Assembly: GCA_951812955.1 (NCBI GenBank)
Contig: OX638340.1
Span: forward strand, 2,400,001-2,464,000
DNA length: 64,000 nt
Direction: 5' to 3'
Source: an uncultured Gemmatimonadota bacterium
GTDB taxonomy: Bacteria > JAAXHH01
Within the stretch, counting starts at the first letter, position 1. Every line of letters begins with the position of its first letter. Both the position numbers and the translations under genes were made by a program. Shown one piece after another: positions 18,701 through 38,174 of the stretch. The notes below the pieces were generated by a model. It did not search any database. It had not been told where the DNA came from and saw only the letters and a list, made by a program, of their open reading frames with translations.

Positions 18701-20351
18701 CCTCCACCCGGATCTTGCCCTTCTCCACGCGCAGGATGCGCCACGAGTTGTTGCCCAGTTGCACGATGTCCCCGGCCGTGCTCTCGATGGCGAAGTCCTC
18801 GTTCAGCGTACCGATGAAAGTCTCCGTCGGCTCCATGATCACGTCGTAGTCGAACTGGTCCGGGATCGTTCCGCCCGACATCAGGGCGTTGATCCGGGCC
18901 CCTCCGCGGCCCTTGACCGCTCCGTTCATCAGGTCACGCTGGATGTAGGCGTGCTTGCGCCCACGACGCGGGGTATAGCCCTCGGACAACATGGCCACGA
19001 CGCCGTCGAATTCCTCCCGGGACAGGGCGCGGTAGGGATAGGCCTTCCGCACCAGGTGGTACAGGTCGTCCTCCTGGAAGTCGCAGTTGGCCACCTCCGC
19101 GATGATCTGCTGGGCCAGCACGTCCAGCGGCTTTTCGGGGATGATGATGCGGTCGAGTTCTCCCCGCCGCACCGAATCCATGATCGCGGCCGCCTCCACC
19201 AGTTCGTCGCGCGTCAGGGGGAACAGGCGCCCTCGCGGCGTGCCCGTGATCGTGTGGCCGGAGCGGCCCACGCGCTGGATGAGCGTCGCGATGGCCTTGG
19301 GCGAACCGATCTGGCACACCAGGTCGACCGACCCGATGTCGATCCCGAGTTCCAGGGAGGCCGTGGCCACGAGGGCCTTCAGCGTGCCGGCCTTGAGCCG
19401 CTGTTCGGCGTCGTGGCGATGCTCCTTCGACATGCTGCCGTGGTGGGAGGTGACGTTCTCCACGCCCAACCGGTCGCTCAGGTGGCGGGCCAGCCGTTCC
19501 GACATGCTCCGCGTCGTGACGAAGACCAGCGTGGTCTCGTGCCGGAGAATGAGCTCCTCTAGGCGTTCATACACCTCCTCCCACACTTCGTTGGACATGA
19601 CCGCGCCGAGCGGGGAGCGTGGCACCTCGATCTTGAGCTCGAGTTTCCGCCGATGGCCGGTGTTGAGGATCTTGCATCCCTCTCCCTTCGCGTAGCCCGC
19701 GCCGGTGAGGAAGTGGGCGATCCGGTCGATGGGTTTCTGTGTTGCCGATATGCCGATGCGCGTAAGTGGACCGGAGGTAAGCCGTTCCAGGCGCTCCACA
19801 GAAAGGGCCAGGTGCGATCCCCGTTTGTTGCCCACCAGCGCGTGGATTTCGTCGATGATGAGGGTGTGCACATTCGGCAGGATGCGCCGGCCCCCCGCGC
19901 TCGTGAGCAGCAGGTACAGGCTTTCCGGCGTCGTTACCAAAATGTGGGGCGGGTGCTTCGTCATGGCGGCGCGCTCGCTCGTGGGCGTATCGCCCGTGCG
20001 GACCGCCACGCGGATGGGCACGTCCGGCCTCTCGCGCTCCTTCAGGATCGCCCGGATGCCCTTCAGGGGGACCTGCAAGTTGGCGTGGATGTCGTTGCTG
20101 AGGGCCTTCAGGGGCGATACGTAGACGATCTGGGTGCCCTCGGGCAGCGAACCGTACTGGCCCTGTCGGACCAGGTCGTCGATGGAAGACAGGAAGGCGG
20201 CAAGCGTCTTGCCGGAACCTGTGGGTGCGGCGATCAGCGCGTGCTTCTGCTGCTTGATGACCGGCCAGGCACGCTTCTGGATGTCGGACGGTTCCGCGAA
20301 CCGTTCCTCGAACCAGGCAGCCACGGCGGGATGGAAGAGGTCGTTGGTCAT
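15798..20351 (-). CDS. lhr: large ATP-dependent helicase Lhr
   Basis: 1517 aa; N-terminus [14 protein letters not shown] (helicase motif I), DEIH (motif II), and length/architecture of Lhr; in-frame low-complexity insert. Confidence 0.9.
18470..18585. repeat. 39-bp in-frame tandem repeat (about 2.9 copies) inside lhr
   Basis: unit gatccgtcgtcagtgttcagcggtccgttttcggcgccc; encodes [13 protein letters not shown] three times on the minus strand. Confidence 0.85.
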
Positions 20352-20459
20352 GGGTCCAATTTAGATGATAATCAATTATTGTACGTTGATACTCGCTCTC
20401 AGTTCAATGGGTGATGGAAGACCATCAATTGTAGTGGTAGTTACCACGATATATTAAAG

Positions 20460-20624
20460 CTAAATCGAAATCCCGTAAACCAACATTACGGTACCGGCGA
20501 TAAGCGCGATTAGTCCCCTGTTCCGGGTGGTGAGTCCGATCCGTTCATACGTTCTGCCGCTGGCCCATACAAGCACGCCCGAGACGAACAGGTATATGCC
20601 GGCGGCGATCAATGCTACGCTCAT
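20460..20624 (-). CDS. possible small two-TM membrane peptide (hypothetical)
   Basis: internal Met of ORF 20460-20843 gives 54 aa with two hydrophobic helices (MSVALIAAGIYLFVSGVLVW...IALIAGTVMLVYGI); no homology recognised. Confidence 0.2.
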   Translation of the reverse strand: MSVALIAAGIYLFVSGVLVWASGRTYERIGLTTRNRGLIALIAGTVMLVYGISI

Positions 20625-20637
20625 AAATCCGCTCGAT

Positions 20638-21477
20638 TCATTCCTCGTACAACACTGGACAATACGCGGGATCGTCCAGGTGCTGCACGTAGTAGTCTTC
20701 GCGGCCCTCCACCGGACGTGCCTTTTCGGTCCGCATGTGGAAGGCGAAGCTTCGGCGCGGCGCGTCCGATACATTGGGCCCGCTGGCGTGGTAGGTGTGA
20801 CGGTCGTGGAAACTGACCGCGCCGGGCGGCAGAACCACCTCAACTTCCTCCCAATCTTCCCCCTCGGGCACGGGGATCTCCTGCTGTTGGGCTTCGTGAT
20901 CGTGTCCGAAGAAGTCGCCGCTGTCCAGCAGGCCCCACCGGTGCGAGCCCCGCAGGAACCGCATCGGTCCGGATTCAGCGGTCACGTTGCTCACGGCAAC
21001 CCAGGCCGTGAACAACTCGCCGTCCAGGTACCTCCAGTACTGCTTGTCCTGGTGCCATCCGACATTGCCTGCCACCTCGCCGCCGGCTGGCTTGAAGAGC
21101 ATCTGGGACGCCCAGAGCTGGACACGTTTCGCGCCAAGCAACTCCGCCGCCCAGCGCCCGATTTCCGGATGGGAGGCCAGTTCGTAGATGGCCCGGTTCG
21201 ACAGGTGCGCCTGGTCGATCTTCCGGATGCGCTTCGGGTCGTCGCCGGGATTCCACGATCGGCGGGGTGGTTCACCGGTTTCGTACGTGCCATCCATGAC
21301 CGCGTCCATGGCGGTCGTCACCCGTTCGATCAGGTCGGCCGGGATGATGGGCGTCGACAGGAAGAAGCCGTCTCGGCGGTAGTGTTCCCGGGCGGACGGG
21401 GGGATGGACACTTTCGGAATAGAAATCGTCATCTGGTCCTCGTCAATCCGGCTGTCGCTCATTCGGTCCTCGCTCAT
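20638..21477 (-). CDS. phytanoyl-CoA dioxygenase (PhyH) family Fe(II)/2-oxoglutarate oxygenase
   Basis: 279 aa; WHQDKQYW (H-x-D iron ligands) and distal H in RGSHRWG; typical PhyH length. Confidence 0.75.
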   Translation of the reverse strand: MSEDRMSDSRIDEDQMTISIPKVSIPPSAREHYRRDGFFLSTPIIPADLIERVTTAMDAVMDGTYETGEPPRRSWNPGDDPKRIRKIDQAHLSNRAIYELASHPEIGRWAAELLGAKRVQLWASQMLFKPAGGEVAGNVGWHQDKQYWRYLDGELFTAWVAVSNVTAESGPMRFLRGSHRWGLLDSGDFFGHDHEAQQQEIPVPEGEDWEEVEVVLPPGAVSFHDRHTYHASGPNVSDAPRRSFAFHMRTEKARPVEGREDYYVQHLDDPAYCPVLYEE

Positions 21478-21484
21478 CCTAACC

Positions 21485-22927
21485 TCACGCGTCCGGCAAC
21501 GCGCTCTTGTACGTCGCGCCGCCGCGCGCCTCGTAGAATTCCTCGTTGGCCCGGGCGAGCAGGTCCGGGTTCCGCAGCAGGTCCAGCCCCGTCAGCGCCA
21601 TGGCCTTGGCGGCGAAGAGCATGCCCCTGTTGCCGATACTCGATCCGGAGGAGGCCACCATCTGCCAGCTGTGGGCGGGCGTGCCCAGGGGCCAGCAGCA
21701 GGTCGTGATCTGCCCGGTGGGCGTGATCCAGCTCACGTCGCCCACGTCCGTCGACCCCTCCACGCCCGGCGGGGTGTCGTTATGGGGAAGCACCTGCGTC
21801 CACAGCGGGTTCTCGATGCTCTCTTCGATGGAGTTTCTCTCCGTTGACTTCTCCATCCGTTCGTAGGCCATCTGGACGGCGTTCTCCGGGAACGTGGCCT
21901 GCAGCTGGCGGGCGAAGCGCCGCTCGTCAGCAGTGAAGGCTAGGTCGTTCACCACCTGCATCTTCGCCAGCATCAGGTCGGAGAGCGTATCGTTCGGTAG
22001 GACGTCGTAACAGCCCGCGATGAACTCGATCTCGTGGGTGGTGCCGCTCATCAGGGCCGCGCCCCGGGCGATGTCGAGCACGCGCTCGTACATCTCGTCC
22101 ACCTCGGAGCGTTTCGGCGACCGGATGTAGTACCAGACCTGGGCGAATGCAGGCACCACGTTCGGCGCCTCACCGCCGCTCGTCACCACGCTGTGGATGC
22201 GAGCCTCCGAAATCACGTGCTCCCTGAGGTAGTTCATGCCCACGTCCATGAGCATGACGCCGTCCAGCGCGCTGCGCCCGAGGTATGGCGCCGCGGCCGC
22301 GTGGGAGGCCACGCCGTGGAAGTTGACCTTGAAGGAGTTCAGGGCCAGAGAGGACCCGTTCCAGACCAGGTTCGTGCTGCCGGGATGCCAGGTGATGGCG
22401 GTGTCGAGGTCGTCAAAGACTCCGGCGCGGGCCATCAGTACCTTGCCCACCACCTGCTCCTCCGCCGGGCAACCATAGTACCGGATGGTGCCGGCGATAC
22501 CGTCCCGCTCCATCGCCCGCTTAAGCGCCATTACCGAACCCATGCAGGCTGTGCCGTACAGATTATGCCCGCAACCATGGCCGGGTCCACCCGGCTCGAT
22601 CACCTCCTTCTCCGCGGACACTGTCTGCGACAGGCCCGGCAGGGCGTCGTATTCGCCGAGGTAGCCGATGATCGGGCCGCCCGAGCCCCACGTGGCGATA
22701 AAGGCCGTGTCCATCCCGCCAGCGCCCCACTCGATGGAGAAGCCATCCGCCTCCAGTTCCTTTGCCTGCAGCTCCGACGCGTAGGTCTCCTGCAGGGCGA
22801 TCTGCGGATGGTCCCAGATGTCCTTCGCGATCCGGGACAGGCTGTCGTCCTGGTCGTTGACGTAATCGATGATTAACTTTTCCGAACTCATGTGCGTGCT
22901 TCTCCGGTTGATTTGCGCGGTATTCAA
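21485..22927 (-). CDS. M20-family amidohydrolase (AbgB / aminobenzoyl-glutamate utilisation protein B-like)
   Basis: 480 aa; metal-ligand blocks GHGCGHNL, GCPAEE, and overall AbgB-like layout; likely true start MSSEKLI at about 22891. Confidence 0.75.
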   Translation of the reverse strand: MNTAQINRRSTHMSSEKLIIDYVNDQDDSLSRIAKDIWDHPQIALQETYASELQAKELEADGFSIEWGAGGMDTAFIATWGSGGPIIGYLGEYDALPGLSQTVSAEKEVIEPGGPGHGCGHNLYGTACMGSVMALKRAMERDGIAGTIRYYGCPAEEQVVGKVLMARAGVFDDLDTAITWHPGSTNLVWNGSSLALNSFKVNFHGVASHAAAAPYLGRSALDGVMLMDVGMNYLREHVISEARIHSVVTSGGEAPNVVPAFAQVWYYIRSPKRSEVDEMYERVLDIARGAALMSGTTHEIEFIAGCYDVLPNDTLSDLMLAKMQVVNDLAFTADERRFARQLQATFPENAVQMAYERMEKSTERNSIEESIENPLWTQVLPHNDTPPGVEGSTDVGDVSWITPTGQITTCCWPLGTPAHSWQMVASSGSSIGNRGMLFAAKAMALTGLDLLRNPDLLARANEEFYEARGGATYKSALPDA

Positions 22928-23157
22928 AGGGTATTCGGTATTTGGGATGTCGATGCGGAATACAGTGGTATATTATAACGGTCACCCGAAGCACATGCAA
23001 CGTAGATGCAACGTAGATGCTGAAGTGTAGACATATTGAAGATACGGACACTGTAGCATAGAAACACTGTAAATACGGCTGCGGAGTTTCTGACGGGCAC
23101 CGGGGTACCACCCTACCATCAGCGCATCAGGAACCATCCAGGGAGCGTACCGCCACC

Positions 23158-24000
23158 ATGCGCCAGTTCGACCGGAAATTCGGCGAAAGGCTCATCGAGA
23201 ATTCTCCCATGACACCTGCGGTATACCTGTTCAAGGACGGGCAGGGCTCGGTGATCTACGTCGGCAAGGCCGGGAACATCCGCCGGCGCCTCCAGCAGTA
23301 CCGCAACGCCTCTCGGCGCAAGGTGCACCGCAAGATGCGGACGCTGGTCCGAGAGGCGAGCGCTCTCGAGATCATCCCTCAGGAATCCGAACGCGAAGCC
23401 CTGTTGCTCGAGAACGAACTGATCCGCAAGCTGCGGCCGCCGTACAACGAGGACGGCACGTGGGATTTTCTATATCCGGCACTCGGAATCGGCGGCACCG
23501 AAAAACAGGTACTGATTTGCTTCACAACCCACGTGGACGCGTGGAAAAGCCTGGACCTGAGGTGGTACGGCGTGTTCAAATCGCGGCGGCGGGCGCTGGC
23601 CGCATTCGATGCGCTGGTCTACCTCCTGCGGCTGATCGGACATATCGAACCGGTGCGGTATCTTCCGCCCCACGAACGGATCCGGGGTTCCCGCCTCACC
23701 GGTTTCCGCCAATTGGCGCCCGAAGTCGTTTCCGCGCTGGACCGCTTCCTGTCCGGAGTCGGCCCCGAAGCGCTCCTACCCCTGACCCACGGTCTGCTGG
23801 AAAAACCCGCCGCCCGCCACGACGCATCGGAAGTCCAGCGGAACATCCGCATGCTCGCGCACTTCCACGAAAGGGACCTCGCGCCCCTGCGCGCGGCCAT
23901 GCGTTCTGCGGGGCGGCCGGGCTCCTTCGTGTCCCAGGCCGAGCGCGACGCGCTGTTCCTGGCCACGGACGAGCGGATCGGCAATGAGGCGGATCCCTGA
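23158..24000 (+). CDS. GIY-YIG nuclease, Cho/UvrC-N-terminal-like excinuclease
   Basis: 280 aa; GIY-YIG core AVYLFKDGQGSVIYVGKAGNIRRRLQQY ... ENELIRKLRPPYN; size matches Cho rather than full-length UvrC. Confidence 0.65.
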   Translation: MRQFDRKFGERLIENSPMTPAVYLFKDGQGSVIYVGKAGNIRRRLQQYRNASRRKVHRKMRTLVREASALEIIPQESEREALLLENELIRKLRPPYNEDGTWDFLYPALGIGGTEKQVLICFTTHVDAWKSLDLRWYGVFKSRRRALAAFDALVYLLRLIGHIEPVRYLPPHERIRGSRLTGFRQLAPEVVSALDRFLSGVGPEALLPLTHGLLEKPAARHDASEVQRNIRMLAHFHERDLAPLRAAMRSAGRPGSFVSQAERDALFLATDERIGNEADP

Positions 24001-24111
24001 CCTCGCCGCCGGCAAAGATTCCGCAAATTCGAAGTAAGTAAATAACCATCAGTAAGGAGTTTTAGAAATAGTAATTTCTATTGACAATAGTAAGGGTTTT
24101 CTTGTAGAGTA

Positions 24112-24381
24112 ATGATATTGTCCGATGACCATGGGAGACATACGACCGTGATTGAATCCGGCATCACGAGCAAAGGGCAGACCACGGTGCCCAAGTTGGT
24201 ACGGGAAGCGCTTGGTCTGGAGTCCGGCGACAGGGTGCGATACGTGATTGATGACCAGGAAGTGCGCATGCTGCCCGTACGTCCGATCGGCAGGCTGTTT
24301 GGCGTACTCAGACATTGTGGCCCACCCGTCACCATCGACGAGATGGAACAGGCCGTTGCCCGCGGAGCCGTCGACCAATGA
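24112..24381 (+). CDS. vapB: AbrB/SpoVT-fold antitoxin (VapB-like)
   Basis: ITSKGQTTVPKLVREALGLESGDRVRYVIDD swapped-hairpin motif; overlaps downstream PIN gene. Confidence 0.6.
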   Translation: MILSDDHGRHTTVIESGITSKGQTTVPKLVREALGLESGDRVRYVIDDQEVRMLPVRPIGRLFGVLRHCGPPVTIDEMEQAVARGAVDQ

Positions 24382-24770
24382 TCGCGCTGGATACCAATGT
24401 CCTGGTCCGGTTTCTCGTGCGCGATGACGAGTCGCAGGCTGCGTCCGCCCGGACTATGCTGGCATCGTGCTCGGCAGAAAAACCCGGATTTGTCTGCCGC
24501 GAAGTCATCCTCGAACTCGTATGGGTCCTTGAACGGGCATACAGCTTCCCTCGCGAACAGATTGCCGACGTACTGGAGCAACTGGTCTCGACCGAGGAAC
24601 TGGTGGTGGAGGCCGCCGCCGATGTTGCGCGCGCTGCATTCAAATACGGAACGGGTGAAGCGGGATTCTCCGACCTGATGATTCTGGCAGCTGCCGAAAG
24701 ATCGCACGCACTGCCCGTGTACACCTTTGACCAAAAGGCCGCGCGGGCCGAAGGTGTGCGTTTGCTGTAG
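24375..24770 (+). CDS. vapC: PIN-domain ribonuclease toxin (VapC)
   Basis: starts MIALDTNVLVRFL (first acidic PIN residue), about 131 aa, 4-bp overlap with antitoxin gene. Confidence 0.7.
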   Translation, partial: PMIALDTNVLVRFLVRDDESQAASARTMLASCSAEKPGFVCREVILELVWVLERAYSFPREQIADVLEQLVSTEELVVEAAADVARAAFKYGTGEAGFSDLMILAAAERSHALPVYTFDQKAARAEGVRLL

Positions 24771-24906
24771 GGAACGAATACTCACCCGTCCGATGTTTTA
24801 CCGAGTGACCAAATAGCTGAAACGAACCAGGGAAGATTGCCTGCTTACCATGAAGAAGCGCTGCTACTTAATCGAGGCATACGCTTCTTCTTAATCGAGA
24901 CATACC

Positions 24907-25764
24907 ATGTTTAAAAAAGTACTGCAGGATGTTTGGGCCTTCGACGCGGAATGGGTTCCCGATCCCGATGCGGGGCGTTTGCTCTACGACCTGCCGCCCG
25001 ACATGCCCGACCGCGAAGTCGTCCAGGAAATGTGGCGCATGAACGGAGCCACGGTAGAAATGCCGCGACCTTTTCTCAAGTATGCCATGAGCCGCCTGGT
25101 GTCCATCGCCATGGTGACCAGAACCCAGGGCCCGGATGGAAACGTATCGCTCGACCTGCGGGTGCAGCCCAGGAATCCGGAAAACCCCGATGACTGTGAC
25201 GAAGCCACGATTCTGTCCCGTTTCCTGGAAAGCGTGGGCCGGCGCCAGCCCCAGCTCGTAGGCTTTAATTCCTCTGGATCGGACCTGCCGATCATGATTC
25301 AGCGGGGGATCATCAAGGGCGTCACCGCGGCCGGGTTCTGCAAGCGGCCGGACAAACCCTGGGAGGGTTACGACTACTTCTCCCGCGCCAGCGATTGGAA
25401 CGTGGACCTGATGACGGCAATCGGGGATTGGGGCAAGGCGCGGCCGTCATTGAAGGAGATGGCCGTACTGTCAGGCATACCTGGGAAGATGGGCGGTTTC
25501 GACGGCGACAGCGTTGCCGAGGCCTGGCTTGACGGAGACATCCGGAGGATCGCCCAGTACAACCAGCACGACGCTGTGACGACCTACCTTGTCTGGCTGC
25601 GCATCGCCCACTTCGCGGGCTTCTTCGACGACGTTCAGTACCGAGACGAACACGCTCTGGTGCGATCGATGCTCAAAGAGAAGGCGCAGTCACCAGAGAA
25701 CCAGCACCTGGCCGAATATGTGCAGGAATGGGACCGGCTCACGGGGATGATCGGGGAAGGGTAG
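24907..25764 (+). CDS. predicted 3'-5' exonuclease related to the PolB exonuclease domain (COG3298-like, DEDDy)
   Basis: 285 aa; Exo I WAFDAEW, Exo II GFNSSGSDLPIM, Exo III YNQHDAVTTY (YxxxD). Confidence 0.6.
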   Translation: MFKKVLQDVWAFDAEWVPDPDAGRLLYDLPPDMPDREVVQEMWRMNGATVEMPRPFLKYAMSRLVSIAMVTRTQGPDGNVSLDLRVQPRNPENPDDCDEATILSRFLESVGRRQPQLVGFNSSGSDLPIMIQRGIIKGVTAAGFCKRPDKPWEGYDYFSRASDWNVDLMTAIGDWGKARPSLKEMAVLSGIPGKMGGFDGDSVAEAWLDGDIRRIAQYNQHDAVTTYLVWLRIAHFAGFFDDVQYRDEHALVRSMLKEKAQSPENQHLAEYVQEWDRLTGMIGEG

Positions 25765-26907: not shown

Positions 26908-26945
26908 CTGATTGCAAGTTTTTAACCGTCCAAGTGCAAGTTTGA
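26908..26945. repeat. about 38-bp element GGCTGATTGCAAGTTTnnAAyCGTCCAAGTGCAAGTT, copy overlapping the 3' end of the ATPase gene
   Basis: direct repeat of the element found upstream of the same gene at 28351-28433. Confidence 0.8.
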
Positions 26946-28319
26946 GGCGGTTTCTACCGGATTCTCCCAAAGCAAACTGACCGGCGCAACCGTCAGTCCT
27001 TCTCCAAAACTCCAACACTTTTCTCCGTCATAAAGCACCACGCCGCCGGCGAACCGGTCACCAGCTGCATCCTTCAGCTTGCGCAATCCGTGGAAATCCG
27101 AAGCGCGTACAGTACTTGACGCTTTCACTTCCACACCCGCAACGGCCATTGTCCCCTTCTCGATCACCAGGTCTACCTCAACCTTGTCCTTGTCCCGATA
27201 GTGATAAAATGTCAGCGTATCATCAGACCAACTGGCCTGTCGTTTTAACTCTTGAAACACGAATGATTCCAGATACTGTCCGAATAGATCCCGATCTTTC
27301 TTCAGCGCCTCGCTGCTCGCACCGATCACGGCGCATCCGATTCCCGTGTCGCAGACATGCAGCTTCGGTGCCTTGACCATTCTCTTCAATCGATTGTTCT
27401 GCCATGCGGGTATCCGTTCCAGCAGGAAGATTCTTTCAAGGATCTCTACATACTTACCTATGGTCGGTCGGCTGAGGCTAAAGGTGGAGGACATGTCCTG
27501 AAGATTGTACAACCTTGCTGTTTGAGTCGCTGCAACAGAGAGGAGTCGAATCATGGCTCCATGATCACTTATCTTGGCTATGTCACGTACATCCCTTTGA
27601 AGTTGTGTTTCAACATAGTTCAGGTACCAATTGCGTCTTCTACCCTCGGTTGAGCGAGCCAACGCGGCCGGGAATCCTCCAGCTACGATTCTATCGGCCA
27701 GTCGGTCCGACGCTCCGGCCAACTCTGGCGCTTTAAGATCACCAGAAAACAATCGATCAAGAAAGGTGGGATGCTGACCCGACAGTTCACACTGGGCCAG
27801 TGGGTGGAGTCTGATGATCTCCAGCCGCCCCGCAAGAGAATCCGATACTCGTGGCACGAGCAGTACCTGCGATGATCCCGTTAGCAGAAACCGGCCGGGA
27901 ATCCGATCACGGTCGATCGCCATTTTCAAAGCGGTGAATATGGAAGGCGCCCGCTGAACCTCATCCAGAATTACTCTGCCAGGCAAATCGTTAACGAAGC
28001 CTATTGGATCTCTTTCCGCGGCTTCGCGTGCTGTTTCATCGTCAAAGGTAATGTAGTTGGCACCGCCCCATTCAATGACCGTTTCGCCGCCCCATACTAT
28101 GGTTTGCGACGGATTCATCATTCTCGCCAAGGTGGTCTTGCCACACTGTCTCGGACCGTGGATCAGGACGGCCGGCGAATCGGCAAGCGCCTCTTTCAGT
28201 GGGTGTTCCGCGTAACGCGGATAGAGTTTGGTCTCGGATGTCATTTTCGTAACGGGCTTTCGAGTAAGTTCCGTTCCTGATCGCATTGTACTGAGTGGTA
28301 CGTTCAATTCTTCTACCAT
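26922..28319 (-). CDS. AAA+ ATPase of the COG1373 / DUF4143 family
   Basis: 465 aa; Walker A AVLIHGPRQCGKTTLARM, Walker B VILDEVQ, C-terminal DUF4143-like region. Confidence 0.75.
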   Translation of the reverse strand: MVEELNVPLSTMRSGTELTRKPVTKMTSETKLYPRYAEHPLKEALADSPAVLIHGPRQCGKTTLARMMNPSQTIVWGGETVIEWGGANYITFDDETAREAAERDPIGFVNDLPGRVILDEVQRAPSIFTALKMAIDRDRIPGRFLLTGSSQVLLVPRVSDSLAGRLEIIRLHPLAQCELSGQHPTFLDRLFSGDLKAPELAGASDRLADRIVAGGFPAALARSTEGRRRNWYLNYVETQLQRDVRDIAKISDHGAMIRLLSVAATQTARLYNLQDMSSTFSLSRPTIGKYVEILERIFLLERIPAWQNNRLKRMVKAPKLHVCDTGIGCAVIGASSEALKKDRDLFGQYLESFVFQELKRQASWSDDTLTFYHYRDKDKVEVDLVIEKGTMAVAGVEVKASSTVRASDFHGLRKLKDAAGDRFAGGVVLYDGEKCWSFGEGLTVAPVSLLWENPVETASNLHLDG

Positions 28320-28483: not shown

Positions 28484-31400
28484 TCAACGAAAATCCCGAC
28501 TCCGAAGCCGCAGCGTCCGGTCCTCCAGCCTCGGGTCCCAGACCGCCTCGGCCACGAGGTGGACCACCCCTTCGCCCACCTGCAGGTTTCCGGTCACGCC
28601 TAAGCAGGGAAGCGTCCTGACCAGCGAGGAATAGTACTCGAATACTTTCTCCCAGATGACCAGATTCACGAACCCCGTTTCGTCCTCCAGTGTCATGAAG
28701 GTGACGCCCTGGGCAGTCCCCGGACGCTGACGGCAGATGACCATGCCCACGTAATGGACCAGGCTGCCGTCCGGCATCCCGTTGAGTTCCCGTGCCGCGG
28801 GCAGTCCCTGGGCGGCCAGACCGGGGCGCAGCGGTTCCAAGAGGTGGCCCAGAACGCTGTGGTCGCTGACCTGATGATCCCAGACGATAGTTTCCAGGCT
28901 GCCCAGGGAGGGAAACCGGGGAGGGGAGGTGCGGCTGTCGAGCGGCAGCGCGGGCGGCTGCCGGGTTTTGGTACCCAGGACCTGCCATAAGGCGCCGCGG
29001 CGGTCTAGGCCGAAACACGCGAAGGCACCCGCCTCGGCCAGGGACTCCAACTTGTCCTCGTGGAGTCCGCTCCGCCGGGCGACGTCCGGAAGGTCCCGGA
29101 AGGGGGTCCGCTCCATAGCCCGGATCAGTTTCTCCCAGTCTCCTTTGCTCAGTCTCTGGACATAGCGCAGTCCCATGCGCACCGCGAACCGGGCGCAACC
29201 CTCACCGCCATCCCCGGCACCGCCCCTGCTATCGTTCCCTGTACTGCCTCCGCTATCGCCCGCGTCTTCCGCTTCAATCTCCTCCAGGGTGCAGTCCCAG
29301 CGGCTGTGAAGAATGCTCACCGGCCGCACTTCCACCCCGTGTATCCGGGCGTCGTTGACGATGGTGGCGGGCGAGTAGAATCCCATGGGCTGGGCGTTCA
29401 GCAGGGCGCAGGTGAACTCCGCCGGGTAGTGGCAGCGCAGGTAGGCGGTGGCGTAGGCGATGTGGGCGAAGCTGGCGGCGTGGCTTTCCGGGAACCCGTA
29501 CTCGCCGAACCCCCGGATCTGCTGGAAGACGCGTTCGCCGAATTCCTGCTTGATGCCCTTCCTCATCATGCGCGTGACCAGCCGTTCCCGGTGCCGTTCG
29601 ATCCGTCCCGAGCGCCGCCAGGCGGCCATGTCCCGCCGGAGCTGGTCGGCCTCGCCGGGGGTGTAGTCCGCCGCCACCATGGCCAGTTGCATCACCTGCT
29701 CCTGGAAGAGGGGCACGCCCAGGGTCTTCTCCAGGACGGGCACGAGGCACTCGTGGGGATAGGTGACTTCCTCCACTCCGTTGCGCCGACGCAGGTAGGG
29801 ATGGACCATGCCGCCCGTGATGGGCCCGGGACGGACGATGCTGATCTCGATCACAAGGTCATAGTAGGTGCGCGGCTTCAGGCGCCCCAGCATGGCCATC
29901 TGGGCCCGGCTCTCGATCTGGAACACCCCCACCGTGTCGCTGCGGCAGATCAGGTCGAAGGTGGCGGCATCCCCCCGGGGGAGCTTGGCCAGAGAGAGGT
30001 CTATCCGGCGGTGCCGCCGCAGGAGGTCGAAGCCGAGGTGCAACAGGTTGAGGGCGCCCAGGCCCAGGAGGTCCACCTTGAACAGTCCCGCGTCTTCCAC
30101 ATCCTCCTTGTCCCACTGGATCACGGTCCGCCCCTCCATGGTGGCGTTCTCGATGGGCACCAGGTCATGGACGGGATAATGGCCCAGCATGAAGCCCCCG
30201 GGATGGATGGAGAGATGGCGGGGAAAATCCTGGATCTCCCGCACCAGGACGTTCAGGTGGAGCAGGGCCGGGTTTTCGGGATCGAGGCCTGCCTGCCGGA
30301 TGAAGGCCCCGTCCCAGCGTTCGTGAGCTATCAGCTTGGCCAGACGGTCCAGGCTGGTTGCTGGTATCTCCAGTACCTTGCCCACCTCCCGGATGGCGGA
30401 CCGGTGGCGGTAACGGACGACGTTGGCCACCATGGCGGCGTGGGTGCGCCCGTACTTCTGGTACACGTGCCGGATCACCTCTTCCCGGCGGTTGTGTTCG
30501 ATGTCCAGGTCGATGTCCGGCGGCTCCGCCCTTTCCCTCGACAGAAAACGCTCGAAGAGGAGGTCCACCTGGGTGGGGTCCACGCTGGTGATGCCCAGGG
30601 AGAAGCAGACAGCGGAGTTGGCCGCCGATCCGCGGCCCTGGCAGAGGATCTTCTCGCGGCGGCAGTATTCCACGATCTCGTGCATGGTCAGGAAATACCC
30701 CTCGTACTCCAATTCCCGGATCAGGGCGAGTTCTTTCTTCAACTGGGGAGTCAGTTGCTTACTTTTGCCGGGCAGGCGGCGTTCCGCGCCCGCGAAGGTG
30801 CGTTCCTCCAGGTACTGGATGGACGTCTTGCCTTTTGGCAGGCGCTCCAGCGGGTAGCGGTAGCGCAGTTCCCCGAGGGAGAAGGTGCAGCGGTCGGCTA
30901 TCTCAAGGGTGCGTTCGAGGGACGCCGGGTCATCGCCGAAGAGCCGCGCCATGTCTTCCGATCCCTTCAGGGCGTACTGGTCGTTCGGCCGGAGGAGGCG
31001 CCCGGCCGCGGGCAGCGTCACGCCCTCCCGGATGCAGGTCAGCACGTCCTGCAGGGGACGCCGTTCGGGCGCGTGGTAGAGCACCTCCACGGCAGCCACG
31101 GTGGGCAGTCCGAAGCGGTCCGCCAGCTCCCGGAGACGAAACTCCTTCAGGATCTCCTCCGCCCTGCGATGCCGGGCCAGGACCACGTACAGGCGGTCTT
31201 TGAAGGCCGCGCGGAGTGGTTCGAGGATAGGGGCGAGGCTGGGGTCTGCAAGGGGCGGCGCGGACTCGGAAAGACCCGATTCGGGGGACGCGCCCTCAAG
31301 GGGCGGCGGGGACGCGTCGGCGGCTCCGGGCGCCGTCGATTCAGGCACGCCGCGCGATTTCAAGTCTCCAGCGCCAGGCGCGGACCCGACGGTGACCGTT

Positions 31401-31882
31401 CCAGAGCCGGACGATCCAGATCCCCCGATCCACAGGGCGATCAACCCCGGGCTGTGGCGGCACACTTCCTCCCAACTCACCCGGCAGTTCCCCTTGGCGC
31501 CGCGCAGGTGCCCGGCGGTCAGCAGCCGGCAGAGCTGGGCGTAGCCGTCCCGGTTCTGGACCAGCAGCAGGATCTCCGAGCCGTCCCGGAGGCTGACCTG
31601 CGATCCCACGACCAGGTGGACGTCCAGTTCCCGGGCGCGGACGTGGGCCCGCACGATGCCGTACACCCCGTTGCGGTCGGTGAGGACCAGGGACGGAAGG
31701 TCCAGGCGGCGGCAGGCCTCCACCAGTTCCTCGGGATGGCTGGCCCCTTCCAGGAAGGAGTAGTTGCTCTTGCACCAGAGGGGCGCGTAGGAGGGAGCTG
31801 GAGACACAAATCCATTCGTGGCCGCCGGACGCGACCCGGTTTTTGTTTTCTCGGTATTCATGATGATCTCAGCGGCCGACAA
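28484..31882 (-). CDS. dnaE2: error-prone DNA polymerase DnaE2 (ImuC)
   Basis: 1132 aa; N-terminal PHP domain [14 protein letters not shown], Pol III alpha catalytic core; Ser/Gly/Pro-rich insert; sits downstream of imuA-imuB. Confidence 0.9.
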
Positions 31883-31921: not shown

Positions 31922-33412
31922 TCATTCCACCCGGCCCTGGACGTACCAGCGGCCCCGCCGGTGGTCGTAATAGACCCAGAGGGTTTCGCCCCGGGCGGTA
32001 TCGACGAAGCGATAGTCCCTCCGGACCTCCCGTACCCACCATCCACCGCTGACCAGGTGTTCTGGGGGCGGACCGGGACCCGAAGGCGCCTGCCAGTGCA
32101 CGGGCTGGCCTTCCAGGACGCGGGGACTGGCGTGGGCGCGCCGCACCAGGGAACGCACGGCGACGGGCCGGGGACTGGCCGCTGCGAGCTTGCCGAAGGG
32201 CCGCCACGCGAAACGGGCCTCCGGCAGGTGCGCCGAGGCCAACCGGGCCGTGAGGACCGAATCGGGGCCGAACTCGGCGCGGACCCGCGCCAGGGCCCGC
32301 ATGGCCGACCCGGTATCGCGGTCCGGATTCTCCTGCAGCAGGTTCAGTTTATCGGCGGTGACGCCCACGGCCTCCACCTCGAGGGCCAACTCCACCGGGG
32401 GAAAGGGGAAGGAGACCGTTTCCAGATGCAGAACCACCAGCTCCAGCAGGATCTTCGCGTCCAGCGTCGGTTCGGCCGCCTGGACCCGGCAGCGGTGCCG
32501 CGTTCCGTTCTCCTGCCGGAACGCCATCTGGAGGGCGGCGGCCGCCTGGTATCTTTCACCCGCGGCCTTCAGCAGGGGCGCCAGCAGTTGGGACACCCGG
32601 AACAGGAGGCCCCGGGCATCGGACTCGTTATCGTCCAGTTCCATCCGGGCCTGGAGCGGTTCGGGAAGCGCCCGGGGCTGGAGGGGCAGGGGGCGGTCAC
32701 CCGTCGCGAAGCGGTAGAGTTCCCTCGCCTGCTCGCCGAGATGCCGGGCGATACGCTCCCCGGGAAGCGCTAGGAAGTCCCCCACGGTATGCACGGCCAG
32801 CTTGTCCAGCCGCTCCCGCAGTTTCGGCTCGAGTTGCAGGTGCACCAGCCCCACCTTGCGGTATTCGGCTTCCTCGGCTTCCACGGACGGGAGTACGATT
32901 ACCCCGTTCCTCGCTCTGGCGACGGCATAGGCGCCGAAACGGCCGAAACCGACCACGACGCTCGCCGAAAACTCCAGCGCGGTGAGGGCGGCGTGCATCT
33001 GTCCGGCCCAGTCCTCCAGCGACACGTAGAGCCAGTCCAGCCCCCCCGCGTCCACCCAGAAGATCCCCGGTTCCTCCCCGCTCGGTTCCACCCGGGGGCT
33101 GAAGCGATCCAGCGCGCCGTGGACCTGCCGGACTGCGGCCCCGACCTCCTCCTCCGAAACCGTCCCGGCGCACAGGCAGCGATCCAGGGAGAGGGCCGCG
33201 GCGTACCGCATGCCCGGCCGGATCCCGCCCCGGACGGCCGCGTCGTTGAGCCACAGGATGGGGCTCAGGGGTTTTTCTTCCTCTACCACCACCACCGGTC
33301 TCTCCCGCCACTGCGGATGGCTCCGCAGCAGGAGCTGCAGCGGCAGCGCCCGAATGTTAATGCAGGCCGTCCGGCCCGCGGCAGATTTCGGTGTGGCGCC
33401 AGCCCGGTCCAT
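31922..33412 (-). CDS. imuB: ImuB, Y-family-polymerase-like mutasome subunit
   Basis: 496 aa; N-terminus WLNDAAVRGGIRPGMRYAAALSL typical of ImuB; position between imuA and dnaE2. Confidence 0.8.
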   Translation of the reverse strand: MDRAGATPKSAAGRTACINIRALPLQLLLRSHPQWRERPVVVVEEEKPLSPILWLNDAAVRGGIRPGMRYAAALSLDRCLCAGTVSEEEVGAAVRQVHGALDRFSPRVEPSGEEPGIFWVDAGGLDWLYVSLEDWAGQMHAALTALEFSASVVVGFGRFGAYAVARARNGVIVLPSVEAEEAEYRKVGLVHLQLEPKLRERLDKLAVHTVGDFLALPGERIARHLGEQARELYRFATGDRPLPLQPRALPEPLQARMELDDNESDARGLLFRVSQLLAPLLKAAGERYQAAAALQMAFRQENGTRHRCRVQAAEPTLDAKILLELVVLHLETVSFPFPPVELALEVEAVGVTADKLNLLQENPDRDTGSAMRALARVRAEFGPDSVLTARLASAHLPEARFAWRPFGKLAAASPRPVAVRSLVRRAHASPRVLEGQPVHWQAPSGPGPPPEHLVSGGWWVREVRRDYRFVDTARGETLWVYYDHRRGRWYVQGRVE

Positions 33413-33992
33413 GACGTCTGTCCTTCAGGATTTCGATTTCACATTGAAAACGGTCCACCGCCAGGCGGCGGCAGGAGGTCTGGCCCCTCAGGGTGACCAT
33501 CGGCCCCAGCGAAGGCGCCTCCCGGGATTTGGCGGTCAGGCACAGCAGGGCGGCGTGGTGGTCCCGCGCCTGCCGGGCCAGGCGCACCTGCAGCGGCACG
33601 GGGACCCTGGAATCGGCGTGCAGGTCCATCACCACCAGCCCGAATCCACCCGATCGCAGGACCCGGTCCCCCGCCCGCGCCGCGGCCCGGGCGTCCGGTA
33701 CGCGGATGACCACCAGGGCGTCCAAGTCCACGCCGCTCTCCGCCGCGTCCGGCGCGAAGAAGGTGTCCGGCGTTGCCGTGATCCAGGCCGCCGGCTCGCC
33801 CTCGAGCTGGGCGTCCAGCACCAGCCGGAAGGCGGCCGTCAGCAGGGCGGCCCCGGGGACGGACGAGAGCTCGCAGAGCCGCCCGGCCAGCTGGGCCCGC
33901 GACCAGCACGGCTGCTCCTCCCGTTTCTTGACGGGCATACGCGTGAAATAGGGATCGAGATCCTGCAGATCCCGATCCCGCGGGGACGACAT
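33357..33992 (-). CDS. imuA: ImuA (RecA/SulA-fold SOS mutagenesis protein)
   Basis: 211 aa; ImuA-like block ELSSVPGAALLTAAFRLVLDAQLEGEPAAWITATPDTF...LRSGGFGLVVMDL; translationally coupled (56-bp overlap) with imuB. Confidence 0.7.
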   Translation of the reverse strand: MSSPRDRDLQDLDPYFTRMPVKKREEQPCWSRAQLAGRLCELSSVPGAALLTAAFRLVLDAQLEGEPAAWITATPDTFFAPDAAESGVDLDALVVIRVPDARAAARAGDRVLRSGGFGLVVMDLHADSRVPVPLQVRLARQARDHHAALLCLTAKSREAPSLGPMVTLRGQTSCRRLAVDRFQCEIEILKDRRHGPGWRHTEICRGPDGLH

Positions 33993-34003: not shown

Positions 34004-34618
34004 TTACTCAACGCTCCGCCGCACCTCGATGACCTTACCCAACAGCGAAAAAGGCGCTCCGTCCTCCCGGGGGATGATCGGACTGAAGGCCTCGTTCTCC
34101 GGATGCAGCTCGACACGGCCGTCCCGCTCCCGGTACCGCTTGACCGTCGCCTCGTCGCCCACCAGGGCCACCACGATGTCCCCCGGACTGGCCGTTGCCT
34201 GCCGACGCACGATCACGATGTCCCCCGGCAGGATGCCGGCATGAAGCATGCTCTCCCCCTCCACGGCCAGCGCGAAGAGCTCATCGTCGTCGAAACGCGT
34301 CTGCACCATGATGTATTCCGGCGGATCCTCCATGGCCTCGGTCAGTTCGCCCGCCTGTACGCGCCCCAGCATGGCGATCAACTGGGGCGGACGGGCCTTG
34401 CCGAACTCCGGCAGCCGGTAACCCCGAGACCTTCCGTCCACCTTGGCGAGCTTCCCCTCGGACACCAGCTTCTCCAGGTGCTGGCGGGCGGACTGGACCG
34501 CCCGGAACCCGAAGGCGCGCTGCACGTCCCGGGTCGTGGGCGGGATCCCGCTTAAGATCCGTTCCCGCACGAAATCGTAGATCTTCTCCCTGGTCTTTCC
34601 AGATGGCGTGTAGGCCAT
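34004..34618 (-). CDS. lexA: LexA repressor
   Basis: true start MAYTPSGKTREKIYDF at 34618; wHTH N-domain, S24 peptidase C-domain with cleavage-site and catalytic blocks (GDIVIVRRQ...); 11 bp upstream of imuA. Confidence 0.9.
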   Translation of the reverse strand: MAYTPSGKTREKIYDFVRERILSGIPPTTRDVQRAFGFRAVQSARQHLEKLVSEGKLAKVDGRSRGYRLPEFGKARPPQLIAMLGRVQAGELTEAMEDPPEYIMVQTRFDDDELFALAVEGESMLHAGILPGDIVIVRRQATASPGDIVVALVGDEATVKRYRERDGRVELHPENEAFSPIIPREDGAPFSLLGKVIEVRRSVE

Positions 34619-34757
34619 GATGGTCTCCTCGGGGCCGGGCCGGTGAAAGGGGTTGATGGAAAGGACCAGCGCAACGGAGAAAAGGGCCGGCGCGAAGGGC
34701 CGATGAAACGTGCCGGGGCGCACCAAAACGCATCAACGAGCGCCTGAAAACCCATAA

Positions 34758-34775
34758 AACAGACATTTGTCTGTT
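34758..34775. promoter_or_regulatory. perfect 18-bp palindrome AACAGACATTTGTCTGTT, candidate LexA operator in the lexA / COG1373-ATPase divergent promoter
   Basis: seen directly; half-sites ACAG...CTGT with 8-bp centre; about 140 bp upstream of lexA start and 120 bp upstream of the ATPase start. Confidence 0.45.
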
Positions 34776-34896
34776 ATGTCAAGCGGTTTTTAGGAAAATT
34801 GGGGATTGGGAACGGGTGAGAACCATTTCACTAACCGCAAGTTCTTTTCAAAATTACAGCTTGCTTATTGATACAATTAACGTTAAATATATTAAT

Positions 34897-36057
34897 ATGA
34901 TGGCAGATTTTTACATTCCTCAAGCGCAACTCACCACACTCGCCCACCTGGTTACACCGGGCAAAGTCGTTGTGGTATACGGACCCAGAAGGGTGGGCAA
35001 GACCACGCTGATCAAGCGTTACATGCGAGAACACGACCCCGACGCCCTGCTCGTAACGGGGGAGGACATCGTGGTCAGGGAGTACCTCGAGAGTCAGTCC
35101 CTGGCCAAATTGACGTCCTTCGTCGGCCGTCGCCGTACACTGATCATCGACGAAGCTCAGCATATCCGGCAAATCGGGCTGAATCTCAAGCTGATCGCCG
35201 ACCACGTCGAAGGGCTTAAGATCATCACCACAGGCTCGTCCTCCTTCGACCTGGCCAATCAGACTGGCGAGCCCCTGACCGGCCGCAAGTATACCCTGCT
35301 GCTTCTGCCACTGGCCCAGTTGGAACTCCAGGAAACCGAATCCGCGCACCAGACACGAGCCCATCTCGAACTTCGGATGATTTACGGGTCGTATCCCGAA
35401 GTCGTCCTCATGGAGTCAAACGAAGACCGGCAACTCTATATCAAGGAACTGATCGCTTCCTATCTATTCAGGGACATACTCCAGCTGGAGGGCATACGCC
35501 ATGCGGACAAGCTGCTCAGGCTGCTGCAACTGGTCGCCTTCCAGATCGGACGCGAGGTATCGACTTCCGAACTGGGCACCCAGTTGGGCATGAAAGCGAA
35601 CACCGTGGATCGATATCTAGACTTACTTGAGAAATCCTATATCCTATACAGCCGCCGCGGGTTCAGCCGCAATCTGCGTAAGGAAATAACCAAGAGCCGA
35701 CGGTATTACTTCTACGACAACGGCATCAGGAACGGGTTGATCAACAACTTCAACCCACTTGCAATGCGGGATGACGCGGGGGAGTTGTGGGAAAGCTACA
35801 TCCTGGTGGAACGATTGAAGCACAACCTCTACAACGGACACCTGGCGGAAAGCTACTTCTGGCGTACATACGATCGCCAGGAAATCGACCTAGTTGAGGA
35901 GTGGGGAGGTCAACTACTTGCCACGGAAATGAAATGGACCGCCAGATCACACCGGGCGCCCGGCGCCTGGCGCAAGGCCTATCCCGAAAGTTCGTTCCAG
36001 GTTGTTCATCCTGAAAACTATCTCAGTTTTATTTCTGAATCACCGGCCGCACCCTAA
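34897..36057 (+). CDS. second AAA+ ATPase of the COG1373 / DUF4143 family
   Basis: start MMADFYIP; Walker A VVVYGPRRVGKTTLIKRYM, Walker B LIIDEAQ; paralog of 26922-28319. Confidence 0.75.
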   Translation: MMADFYIPQAQLTTLAHLVTPGKVVVVYGPRRVGKTTLIKRYMREHDPDALLVTGEDIVVREYLESQSLAKLTSFVGRRRTLIIDEAQHIRQIGLNLKLIADHVEGLKIITTGSSSFDLANQTGEPLTGRKYTLLLLPLAQLELQETESAHQTRAHLELRMIYGSYPEVVLMESNEDRQLYIKELIASYLFRDILQLEGIRHADKLLRLLQLVAFQIGREVSTSELGTQLGMKANTVDRYLDLLEKSYILYSRRGFSRNLRKEITKSRRYYFYDNGIRNGLINNFNPLAMRDDAGELWESYILVERLKHNLYNGHLAESYFWRTYDRQEIDLVEEWGGQLLATEMKWTARSHRAPGAWRKAYPESSFQVVHPENYLSFISESPAAP

Positions 36058-36796: not shown

Positions 36797-37429
36797 GTGT
36801 TTTCAATGAGCAGTATGGCCGCTAAAATCATGCGTCGGGTGTCCGCTCATCCCACCGGAAAGTGGGTTTGTACACCGAAGGATTTCCTGGACTTCGGGAG
36901 CAGGGAGGCCATTGACCAGGCTCTGTCGCGCCTGGCCAGATCCGATCGGCTGCGGCGCATAGGCCACGGCCTCTATGACAGGCCCAGGTTCAGCAACGTA
37001 CTGAGACGTCCTGCGCCGGTTGATCTGGATGCTGCAGTTAGCGCACTGGCAAGGAGGGACGGCGTTCAGATCCTGCCGGATGGCATGGCCTCTGCGAATC
37101 AGTTGGGACTCACGAACGCCGTACCGGCCAAAGTCAGCTTCGTAACAGATGGCTACTCCAGGACACTTAAAATTGAAGGAAGGACGGTCCGTTTTCGACA
37201 TGCGAGCCCGAGCGTTATGAAATGGGCCGGAAGACCGTCAGCTTCGGTGGTTCAGGCGTTGCGATGGCTTGGTCCCGCCGCGGCCGAGGACGCACGGGTC
37301 CTGTCGACCTTGAGCCGAACCCTCTCGGAAGAAGTGAAGGTCGATTTATTAAGAAACATACGCGATCTGCCGGGATGGGTATTGCCGCTGTTGCGAGAAA
37401 TAACCACTGAACATCACGACGCAATATGA
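36797..37429 (+). CDS. AbiEi-like / DUF6088 antitoxin (type IV TA system)
   Basis: 210 aa; wHTH-like N-terminus VCTPKDFLDFGSREAIDQALSRLARSDRLRRIGHGLY resembling AbiEi_4/DUF6088. Confidence 0.5.
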   Translation: MFSMSSMAAKIMRRVSAHPTGKWVCTPKDFLDFGSREAIDQALSRLARSDRLRRIGHGLYDRPRFSNVLRRPAPVDLDAAVSALARRDGVQILPDGMASANQLGLTNAVPAKVSFVTDGYSRTLKIEGRTVRFRHASPSVMKWAGRPSASVVQALRWLGPAAAEDARVLSTLSRTLSEEVKVDLLRNIRDLPGWVLPLLREITTEHHDAI

Positions 37430-37436
37430 AAATGGA

Positions 37437-38174
37437 TTGCGTATCTTTCCTCTCCCTTCCTGTCCAGGACAGACGGGACCTCTTCGAGTCAGCGGCAAAC
37501 TGAAAACCGCACTTTCGAGACGAATCGACGAGATCGTCGAAGGAGGTCTTGTCATTCCAGATGAAAGCGACGTCGACGGCCAGACGCTTCTCGTGGAGTA
37601 CCCTACACTTTACCCTGGAGACAGTGTCGCCTACGTGGCGCCACGGGTACGAATCGAGGCAGGGGCGAGATCGGCGCTGGATCCCAACCTGACCCGTACC
37701 ATCAAACCATTCATCGCGGATGAGGTGCGAGACTTGTCTTTGGCAGTGGAAAACATCCGCGTTATCGCACCAGATCGCACGCTCTGGGAGAAGCTGTTGA
37801 TCCTGCATGGGTTGTACTGCGGATATCGGGACGCACAGCGTCTACCGGCAGACAGAGATCGGATATCCCGCCACTACTACGATGTTGCCATGATAACGGA
37901 GACCGAGTCCGGCAGGGCCGCTCTATCCAACCTTGAATTGATGGATTCAGTTCGTAAACACAACCTTATTGCGTTTCGACAGGCCTGGAAGAAGTTCGAA
38001 GAGGCCGTACCTGGACGGGTGAAACTGGTTCCTCAGTTGGAACTGCACATGCTGATCGAGCGGGACTATGAAGCCATGCAGGACATGATCCTGGGTGACG
38101 TCCCGAATTTCAGATGGATCGTGGACCAATTGATGCATGCCGAAGCCATTGTCAATGGAACTACGAGAAGTTAA
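37437..38174 (+). CDS. AbiEii/DUF1814-like nucleotidyltransferase toxin, possibly N-terminally shortened
   Basis: 245 aa; C-terminal SRHYYDVAMI resembles the RhxYD motif of AbiEii; N-terminal GGTAL...RxSxDxD NTase motif only weakly present (EGGLVIPDESDVD). Confidence 0.4.
   Translation: MRIFPLPSCPGQTGPLRVSGKLKTALSRRIDEIVEGGLVIPDESDVDGQTLLVEYPTLYPGDSVAYVAPRVRIEAGARSALDPNLTRTIKPFIADEVRDLSLAVENIRVIAPDRTLWEKLLILHGLYCGYRDAQRLPADRDRISRHYYDVAMITETESGRAALSNLELMDSVRKHNLIAFRQAWKKFEEAVPGRVKLVPQLELHMLIERDYEAMQDMILGDVPNFRWIVDQLMHAEAIVNGTTRS

Follow-up and report, generated by a model that had tools for sequence, protein, structure and literature searches.

[quoted passage not shown] The lexA gene (34004..34621) codes for a protein of 205 aa with the Pfam domains LexA_DNA_bind, a winged-helix domain, and Peptidase_S24, a self-cleaving peptidase domain, and its product matches the NCBIfam equivalog model TIGR00498 with 153 bits against a cut-off of 110.95. 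Alignment with E. coli LexA places the Ala-Gly cleavage site at A90 and G91 and the catalytic Ser and Lys at S124 and K161, all of which are invariant. Judged from its predicted protein, the repressor linked to the cassette has both the DNA-binding domain and the complete self-cleavage machinery of a genuine LexA. The segment of the recognition helix reads AVQSARQHL in the window LexA and SPNAAEEHL in E. coli; the residues at the expected contacts all differ, which fits a different DNA specificity.

The second gene (33357..33992, 211 aa) is imuA-like by its position in the cassette and would code for a RecA/SulA-like accessory protein. The window protein has no Pfam or NCBIfam match; homologues carry the source name "recombinase A" and some of them match PF00154. 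The imuB gene (31922..33412), identified by a Pfam IMS domain and by conserved synteny, codes for a Y-family polymerase-like protein of 496 aa. The last gene, dnaE2 or imuC (28484..31882), codes for an error-prone paralogue of the DNA polymerase III alpha subunit with 1132 aa, which contains the Pfam PHP, DNA_pol3_alpha, finger, HHH_6 and OB domains and matches the NCBIfam model NF004225, "error-prone DNA polymerase", with 1298.8 bits against a cut-off of 939.

On either side of the cassette lies an AAA_14/DUF4143 ATPase gene with a lower GC (26922-28319 on the minus strand and 34897-36057 on the plus strand); the two share only 24% identity and are therefore not a recent duplication. The right flank, from about 34.8 to 39 kb, gives the impression of an inserted island: its GC is 0.54-0.58, and it contains a toxin-antitoxin pair of the DUF6088/AbiEi-like and AbiEii type at 36797-38174. 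On the other side of the cassette, a cluster of DNA-repair-type genes at 15798-25764 includes the genes of an Lhr large helicase (15798-20351, minus strand), of a GIY-YIG protein that resembles the UvrC N-terminus or Cho (23158-24000, plus strand) and of a PolB-like 3'-5' exonuclease (24907-25764, plus strand). Near the left end, a gene at 1541-6214 (plus strand), in a stretch of lower GC (about 0.50-0.55), codes for a 1557-aa protein with numerous leucine-rich repeats and Big_2 domains, which are bacterial Ig-like. Eukaryote-like repeat proteins of this kind are often reported in sponge symbionts, and its presence agrees with the closest relatives coming from sponge metagenomes.

The lexA start codon (34621, minus strand) and that of the right-hand DUF4143 ATPase gene (34897, plus strand) are separated by a divergent gap of 275 bp, and the palindrome studied here lies in this gap, in the divergent promoter of lexA, as the earlier note had placed it. 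The sequence AACAGACATTTGTCTGTT is found at 34758-34775 of the plus strand. The lexA start codon lies 137 nt downstream of it, a longer distance than most relatives have. The sequence had been taken for a perfect 18-bp palindrome, which is not correct: its reverse complement, AACAGACAAATGTCTGTT, differs at the 2 central positions, so that 16 of 18 positions pair, and the element consists of the 8-nt arms AACAGACA (34758-34765) and TGTCTGTT (34768-34775) on either side of a non-symmetric TT at 34766-34767. Comparison with relatives extends the unit to a candidate operator of 20 bp (34757..34776), which reads AAACAGACATTTGTCTGTTA on the plus strand and TAACAGACAAATGTCTGTTT in the orientation of lexA.

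The palindrome could also have arisen by chance or have a structural role, for instance as a hairpin, a terminator or a recombination site, and bind no regulatory protein, and the frequency of such repeats is compatible with a chance origin. One perfect 8+2+8 inverted repeat is observed in the window, where first-order Markov simulations give a mean of 1.8, and inverted repeats with spacers of 0-6 nt number 11 against 10.7 expected. Taken alone, the 8+2+8 repeat is thus at chance level, and its weight comes from its promoter position and its conservation. A structural role meets the difficulties that a 2-nt loop cannot form a stable hairpin, that no T-tract follows the site, and that the site is not in the lexA mRNA because it lies upstream of the inferred transcription start.

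Read in the orientation of lexA, the promoter region is CTTGACA-TAACAGACAAATGTCTG-TTTTAT-GG. A perfect -35 hexamer, TTGACA (34777..34782, minus strand), abuts the operator directly, and a weak candidate -10 hexamer, TTTTAT (34754..34759, minus strand; 4 of 6 matches), follows after a 17-nt spacer that lies wholly inside the operator. A scan with the consensus promoter calls no promoter at the lexA site because the -10 element does not have A at position 2. The arrangement is that of LexA operators in general, with a 20-bp dyad between the -35 and -10 elements of a lexA promoter.

From the promoter to the lexA start runs a long 5' leader of 132 nt (34622..34753, minus strand), which holds a pair of 12-nt repeats, GGGCCGGTGAAA and GGGCCGATGAAA, 60 nt apart at 34637-34648 and 34697-34708. 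An RNA element in this leader was considered and ruled out, since an Rfam search of 34622-34753 gives no match and the leader has no excess structure (z = -0.09). In the closest clade, which comprises sponge-associated genomes (upstream regions of L002-L015), the leader between operator and lexA varies from about 80 to 320 nt and contains GC-rich repeats; at L010 (2793-2900) a 39-nt unit is present 2.8 times, with a 13-nt sub-period, CGCCGGCCCGTTT.

An outer inverted repeat, CCTGAAAACC / GGTTTTTAGG (9 of 10 positions), at 34743-34752 and 34785-34794, brackets the operator together with the -35 hexamer. The 58-nt region that includes it folds, as single-stranded DNA, better than its shuffles (z = -3.5), a point in favour of a structural element. 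The outer repeat is partly conserved in the closest clade only and is absent in Acidobacteriota and other relatives, which argues against a structural role of the conserved site.

A scan by LexA alignment, with one genome per species, gives 80 related lexA loci, whose surroundings amount to 496 kb and whose phylum labels are those of the record titles. Identity to the window LexA is 88-97% in sponge-associated Latescibacterota/Gemmatimonadota genomes, about 73-75% in Acidobacteriota, and 59-66% in Spirochaetia, Myxococcota, Desulfobacterales and Binatia; all hosts of this LexA family are uncultured. One promoter site is present in all 80 loci, 27-382 nt upstream of lexA. A position weight matrix finds it with at least 12 bits in 79 of them, and the degenerate copy of L074 comes from a palindrome search. 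The matrix was built from lexA-promoter sites, so refinding these sites with it is circular; independent evidence is provided by a search for dyad symmetry around an ACA..TGT core only, which detects the element upstream of lexA in nearly all 80 loci, and by the pattern-first scan of metagenomes described below.

The family consensus is TA[A/C]CAGACA-WW-TGTCTG[G/T]TA, with AA or TT at the centre. Its conserved core is ACA-WW-TGT, i.e. AC-N4-GT, and the positions of ACAG/CTGT vary in relatives, where CCAG, CCGT or CCAT is found. Changes in one half-site are paired with changes in the other: positions 3/18 are A.T in 15 distinct sites and C.G in 15, positions 5/16 are A.T in 37 and G.C in 3, and positions 6/15 are G.C in 31 and T.A in 8. 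Such paired changes, which keep the symmetry, read as the signature of a homodimer site that evolves together with its protein. Within the family, the LexA recognition helix is nearly invariant (AVQ[S/T]AR[Q/E]HL) and shows no clean residue-to-base correlation with the type of half-site. The intergenic sequence around the operator is otherwise unalignable between phyla. Conservation across phyla with paired half-site changes excludes a chance origin and, together with the points on loop, position and flanking sequence given above, makes a palindrome that binds no regulatory protein extremely improbable.

The promoter geometry is conserved as well. Of 78 distinct promoters (77 orthologous ones and that of the window), 54 have TTGACA, or a version of it with one mismatch, directly next to the 20-mer, and the -10 elements of the relatives, such as TATTCT, TATAGT and TATAAA, start at operator position 18-19. 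Across the family, the operator thus takes up the space between the two promoter elements. The genes imuA-imuB-dnaE2 follow lexA in 64 of the 80 loci, and the other 16 have a standalone lexA that keeps the site outside any cassette, so that the site goes with lexA and not with imuA or imuB.

The position of the site in a shared divergent intergenic region would also be compatible with an operator of another regulator, for example one that controls the DUF4143 ATPase gene, with the proximity of lexA being incidental. This is highly improbable, since the divergent neighbour varies among the loci whose upstream flank was inspected while the site follows lexA in 80 of 80, since the site accompanies imuB or dnaE2 elsewhere, and since the adjoining -35 hexamer points towards lexA. 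The palindrome is very probably the autoregulatory operator of the adjacent LexA, with LexA as the binding protein inferred from this linkage.

The pattern TAMCAGACANNTGTCTGKTA was used as an exact query against metagenome contigs and is found in at least 120 stretches. In 69 of the 120 matches listed, a lexA-like gene starts 8-153 nt downstream (68 at E <= 1e-5 and one fragment at a contig end). Five further listed matches have no lexA nearby and lie upstream of dnaE2 (L130, L149, L159, L176) or of imuB (L158), and these operators of dnaE2 or imuB alone are placed 20-180 nt upstream of their genes. The contig L159 has two operators, at 3226-3245 and 8071-8090, one before dnaE2 and one before imuB, each with a TTGAAT -35 and a TA-rich -10 element; unrelated genes separate imuB and dnaE2, and neither lexA nor imuA is present within 14.5 kb, so use of the motif does not require a nearby lexA.

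Divergent LexA-like repressors, with 33-39% identity to the window LexA, have the same operator, TACCAGACA-NN-TGTCTGGTA, 37-78 nt upstream (L083, L110 and L118, and also L104, L107, L112, L119, L154, L167, L185, L189 and L194). In L083, L110 and L118, a gap of about 800-960 bp separates this lexA-like gene from an imuB-like gene (24% identity) and dnaE2 downstream of it, an arrangement that could represent an imuY- or imuA'-type variant of the cassette.

The remaining listed matches do not point to LexA sites. Eleven of them are one recurring 20-mer, TAACAGACAGATGTCTGGTA, which is coding and belongs to the gene of an ABC-transporter ATPase with about 370 aa (L087, L098, L109, L168, L169, L180, L108, L137, L140, L142, L184); at least 2 of these contigs are labelled human gut, and this coding match is a source of false positives for pattern scans. 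Unassigned matches with an A/T centre are mostly in low-GC DNA with no open reading frame nearby or at contig ends, and other annotated matches without lexA have unrelated neighbours (a sigma factor, an MFS transporter, a Rieske oxygenase and others); both sets are treated as chance. In viral contigs the pattern AMCAGACAWWTGTCTGKT is found in 14 stretches of low-GC phage, with no lexA, cassette or promoter context, and these matches are also judged to be chance. No LexA relative in a plasmid collection exceeds 42% identity, and the nearest annotated ones, at about 40%, are from Firmicutes and Streptomyces. The plasmid CP114558.1 of Candidatus Manganitrophus (L201; Nitrospirota) has a lexA-imuA-imuB-dnaE2 cassette with a LexA of 40% identity, and its promoter palindromes (L201 1-130) differ: GGAAA-N5-TTTCC stands beside TTGACA and GAGGTAT-N8-ATACCTC lies over the start codon, which may be yet another LexA motif. 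The lexA of a Ralstonia megaplasmid has no cassette.

The same LexA and motif could also serve as a global SOS box, present at recA, uvrA, ssb, dinB and other genes as in E. coli and B. subtilis. Some features of the family agree with such a role: the 16 standalone autoregulated lexA loci (L033-L047, L052) resemble those of a primary LexA, the site works away from lexA at imuB and dnaE2, and the LexA passes the TIGR00498 equivalog model. The distribution of sites argues against it. In the window, the weight matrix gives 35.5 bits to the site at 34757-34776 and only 7.2 bits to the runner-up, which is inside the shuffle range, so lhr, the GIY-YIG Cho-like gene and the PolB-like exonuclease gene have no operator, in agreement with the reading by eye that had found no second copy upstream of the Cho-like gene or lhr. 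No second site appears in the 496 kb around the 80 lexA loci either, where the sole extra match of at least 12 bits has 12.7 bits and lies 40 nt from the site of L031, nor in 648 kb of metagenome loci, with the exception of the imuB promoter of L159. The identifiable genes downstream of the listed perfect-consensus matches in a bacterial promoter context are lexA, imuB and dnaE2, and no promoter of recA, uvrA or ssb is among the metagenome matches listed, a sample that favours perfect sites and short contigs and is therefore weak evidence on the breadth of the regulon. A global SOS box is, on balance, unlikely. The regulon appears narrow, as far as the predicted sites indicate, and would comprise the cassette plus imuB or dnaE2 with an operator of their own where they are separated from lexA.

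For an autoregulatory LexA operator, the following mechanism can be proposed, in which LexA binding, repression by this binding and RecA-dependent induction are inferred steps. A LexA dimer would sit on TAACAGACA-AA-TGTCTGTTT, the 20-bp dyad, and each half-site would be contacted by one of its winged-helix domains. Since this dyad takes up the whole -35/-10 spacer and reaches both hexamers, bound LexA would block RNA polymerase and lexA-imuA-imuB-dnaE2 would stay repressed. Upon DNA damage, RecA filaments would trigger the self-cleavage of LexA at the conserved Ala-Gly bond and the operator would be cleared, which would allow expression of the error-prone polymerase module and of fresh LexA that resets the switch.

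The proposal of the earlier note, a candidate LexA operator different from three textbook boxes, is supported by the presence of the site at 80 of 80 loci, by the paired changes and by the association with lexA, imuB and dnaE2 in metagenomes. Its suggestion that the site may define the LexA motif of this lineage stands in part: a shared motif exists, and the lineage that shares it is that of a cassette-linked LexA spanning several phyla, not an organismal clade. A broader claim, to which we give somewhat less than an even chance, is that TA[A/C]CAGACA-WW-TGTCTG[G/T]TA represents an uncatalogued class of LexA motif, nearly constant over at least 6 labelled phyla and over LexAs down to 33% identity, which travels with imuA-imuB-dnaE2 as a self-contained unit and has a regulon that is approximately the cassette. 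A 2021 paper counts 17 reported LexA motifs (PMC8565304). The searchable literature has no description of this motif, and an earlier description in Erill et al. 2006 or Abella et al. 2007 is possible. Among the strings CAGACAAATGTCTG, CAGACATTTGTCTG, GTACATTTGTAC, ATACAAATGTAT, TACCAGACA and TGTCTGGTA, the four longer ones are absent from the papers listed, where the two short ones occur only in work unrelated to LexA.

If this claim is true, damage-inducible mutagenesis would be wired apart from other DNA repair in these uncultured lineages, sponge symbionts included, and repressor, operator and mutagenesis genes would form a unit that can move between genomes with no rewiring. LexA is the textbook case of repeated drift in the binding motif of a transcription factor, and the site provides a well-supported SOS box candidate for several phyla that have neither a cultured model nor a described box. 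With the 20-bp consensus, annotators can predict damage-inducible mutagenesis operons in metagenome-assembled genomes, and the paired variation of LexA and operator is a natural dataset on changes in protein specificity. That a LexA autoregulates a lexA-imuA-imuB-dnaE2 operon is expected, and the advance is incremental rather than conceptual because the principle of this autoregulation is already established.

Among known LexA boxes, that of E. coli and other Gammaproteobacteria, TACTG(TA)5CAGTA, is likewise a 20-bp dyad that overlaps the promoter, binds a LexA dimer and autoregulates lexA, and its outer TAC...GTA is common with the consensus of the relatives. The window site reads ACAG-N8-CTGT, as had been described, and not CTGT-N8-ACAG, so the tetranucleotides are in the opposite order, and they are not what is conserved in the family. 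The likeness to a "reversed E. coli box" is superficial and this framing misleading, to judge from the aligned sites, because relatives replace ACAG/CTGT by CCAG, CCGT or CCAT. The mismatches that had been noted to two other boxes are also found: the window site has AGAC-N4-GTCT and not the Gram-positive GAAC-N4-GTTC, and it is an inverted repeat with neither GTTC nor GAAC, unlike the alphaproteobacterial GTTC-N7-GTTC. No match exists to the Balneolaeota box TTACACATATTTTWTACATA, to CTAA-N5-TTAG and GGA-N5-TCC of Bacteroidetes, or to the boxes of Geobacter (GGTT-N10-AACC), Bdellovibrio (TTAC-N3-GTAA) and Myxococcus (CTRHAMRYBYGTTCAGS) (PMC4951493, PMC7739468, PMC8565304, PMC2248561).

The Cheo box of Gram-positive bacteria (Firmicutes/Actinobacteria) is CGAAC-N4-GTTCG, with the predicted consensus tacgAACatatGTTcgta (PMC2248561, Table 5). 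It shares with the window site the same centre and geometry, the AC-N4-GT core, an A/T-rich centre and the flanks, and its left half, TACGAACAT, is identical to (T/A)ACAGACAW at 7 of 9 positions counted from the centre. The difference is that GA becomes AG in each half of the window site and that the symmetry here is conserved over 18-20 bp. The box of Verrucomicrobia, TGTTC-N4-GAACA, also occurs upstream of lexA-imuA-imuB-dnaE2 in Opitutus terrae (PMC4951493). It is likewise a derivative of the Gram-positive-like box and was found by the same comparative logic, but its half-site and orientation differ and it is often in tandem, whereas a single site is present here.

Cyanobacteria have the box RGTAC-N3-DGTWCB, with the predicted consensus aggtACAtaTGTacct and ACA-N2-TGT as its top dyad (PMC2248561, Table 5), and according to a review the mutagenesis cassette is absent from them (PMC3901139). 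The ACA-N2-TGT core is common with the window site, and the distant members L058, L060 and L072 (CGTACATTTGTACG) agree with the cyanobacterial pattern in 13 positions out of 14. The 14-mer of the window, CAGACAAATGTCTG, does not fit it, with mismatches at 5 of 11 specified positions: it has AGAC/GTCT rather than GTAC/GTAC, and the flanks are TA[A/C]C...G[G/T]TA rather than AGG...CCT.

The operon lexA2-imuA-imuB-imuC of P. putida is induced by damage under the control of LexA2 (PMC5261740, PMC3901139). There, as in the window, a lexA heads the same four-gene operon. Abella et al. 2007 reportedly found that LexA2 controls essentially only its own operon and has the box GTAC-N4-GTGC, which is of the same AC-N4-GT class. 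The half-site differs, the palindrome is longer here and the hosts are other than Gammaproteobacteria. Through the AC-N4-GT core, the motif would be an intermediate that links the Gram-positive GAAC, the cyanobacterial GTAC and the Pseudomonas LexA2-type boxes. It appears to be a further derivative of the Gram-positive-like class, because this core is common to the boxes and because the nearest plasmid LexAs are from Firmicutes and Streptomyces. By analogy, the logic of the circuit is closest to that of P. putida LexA2, whose regulon, reportedly narrow, the predicted regulon of this family would parallel.
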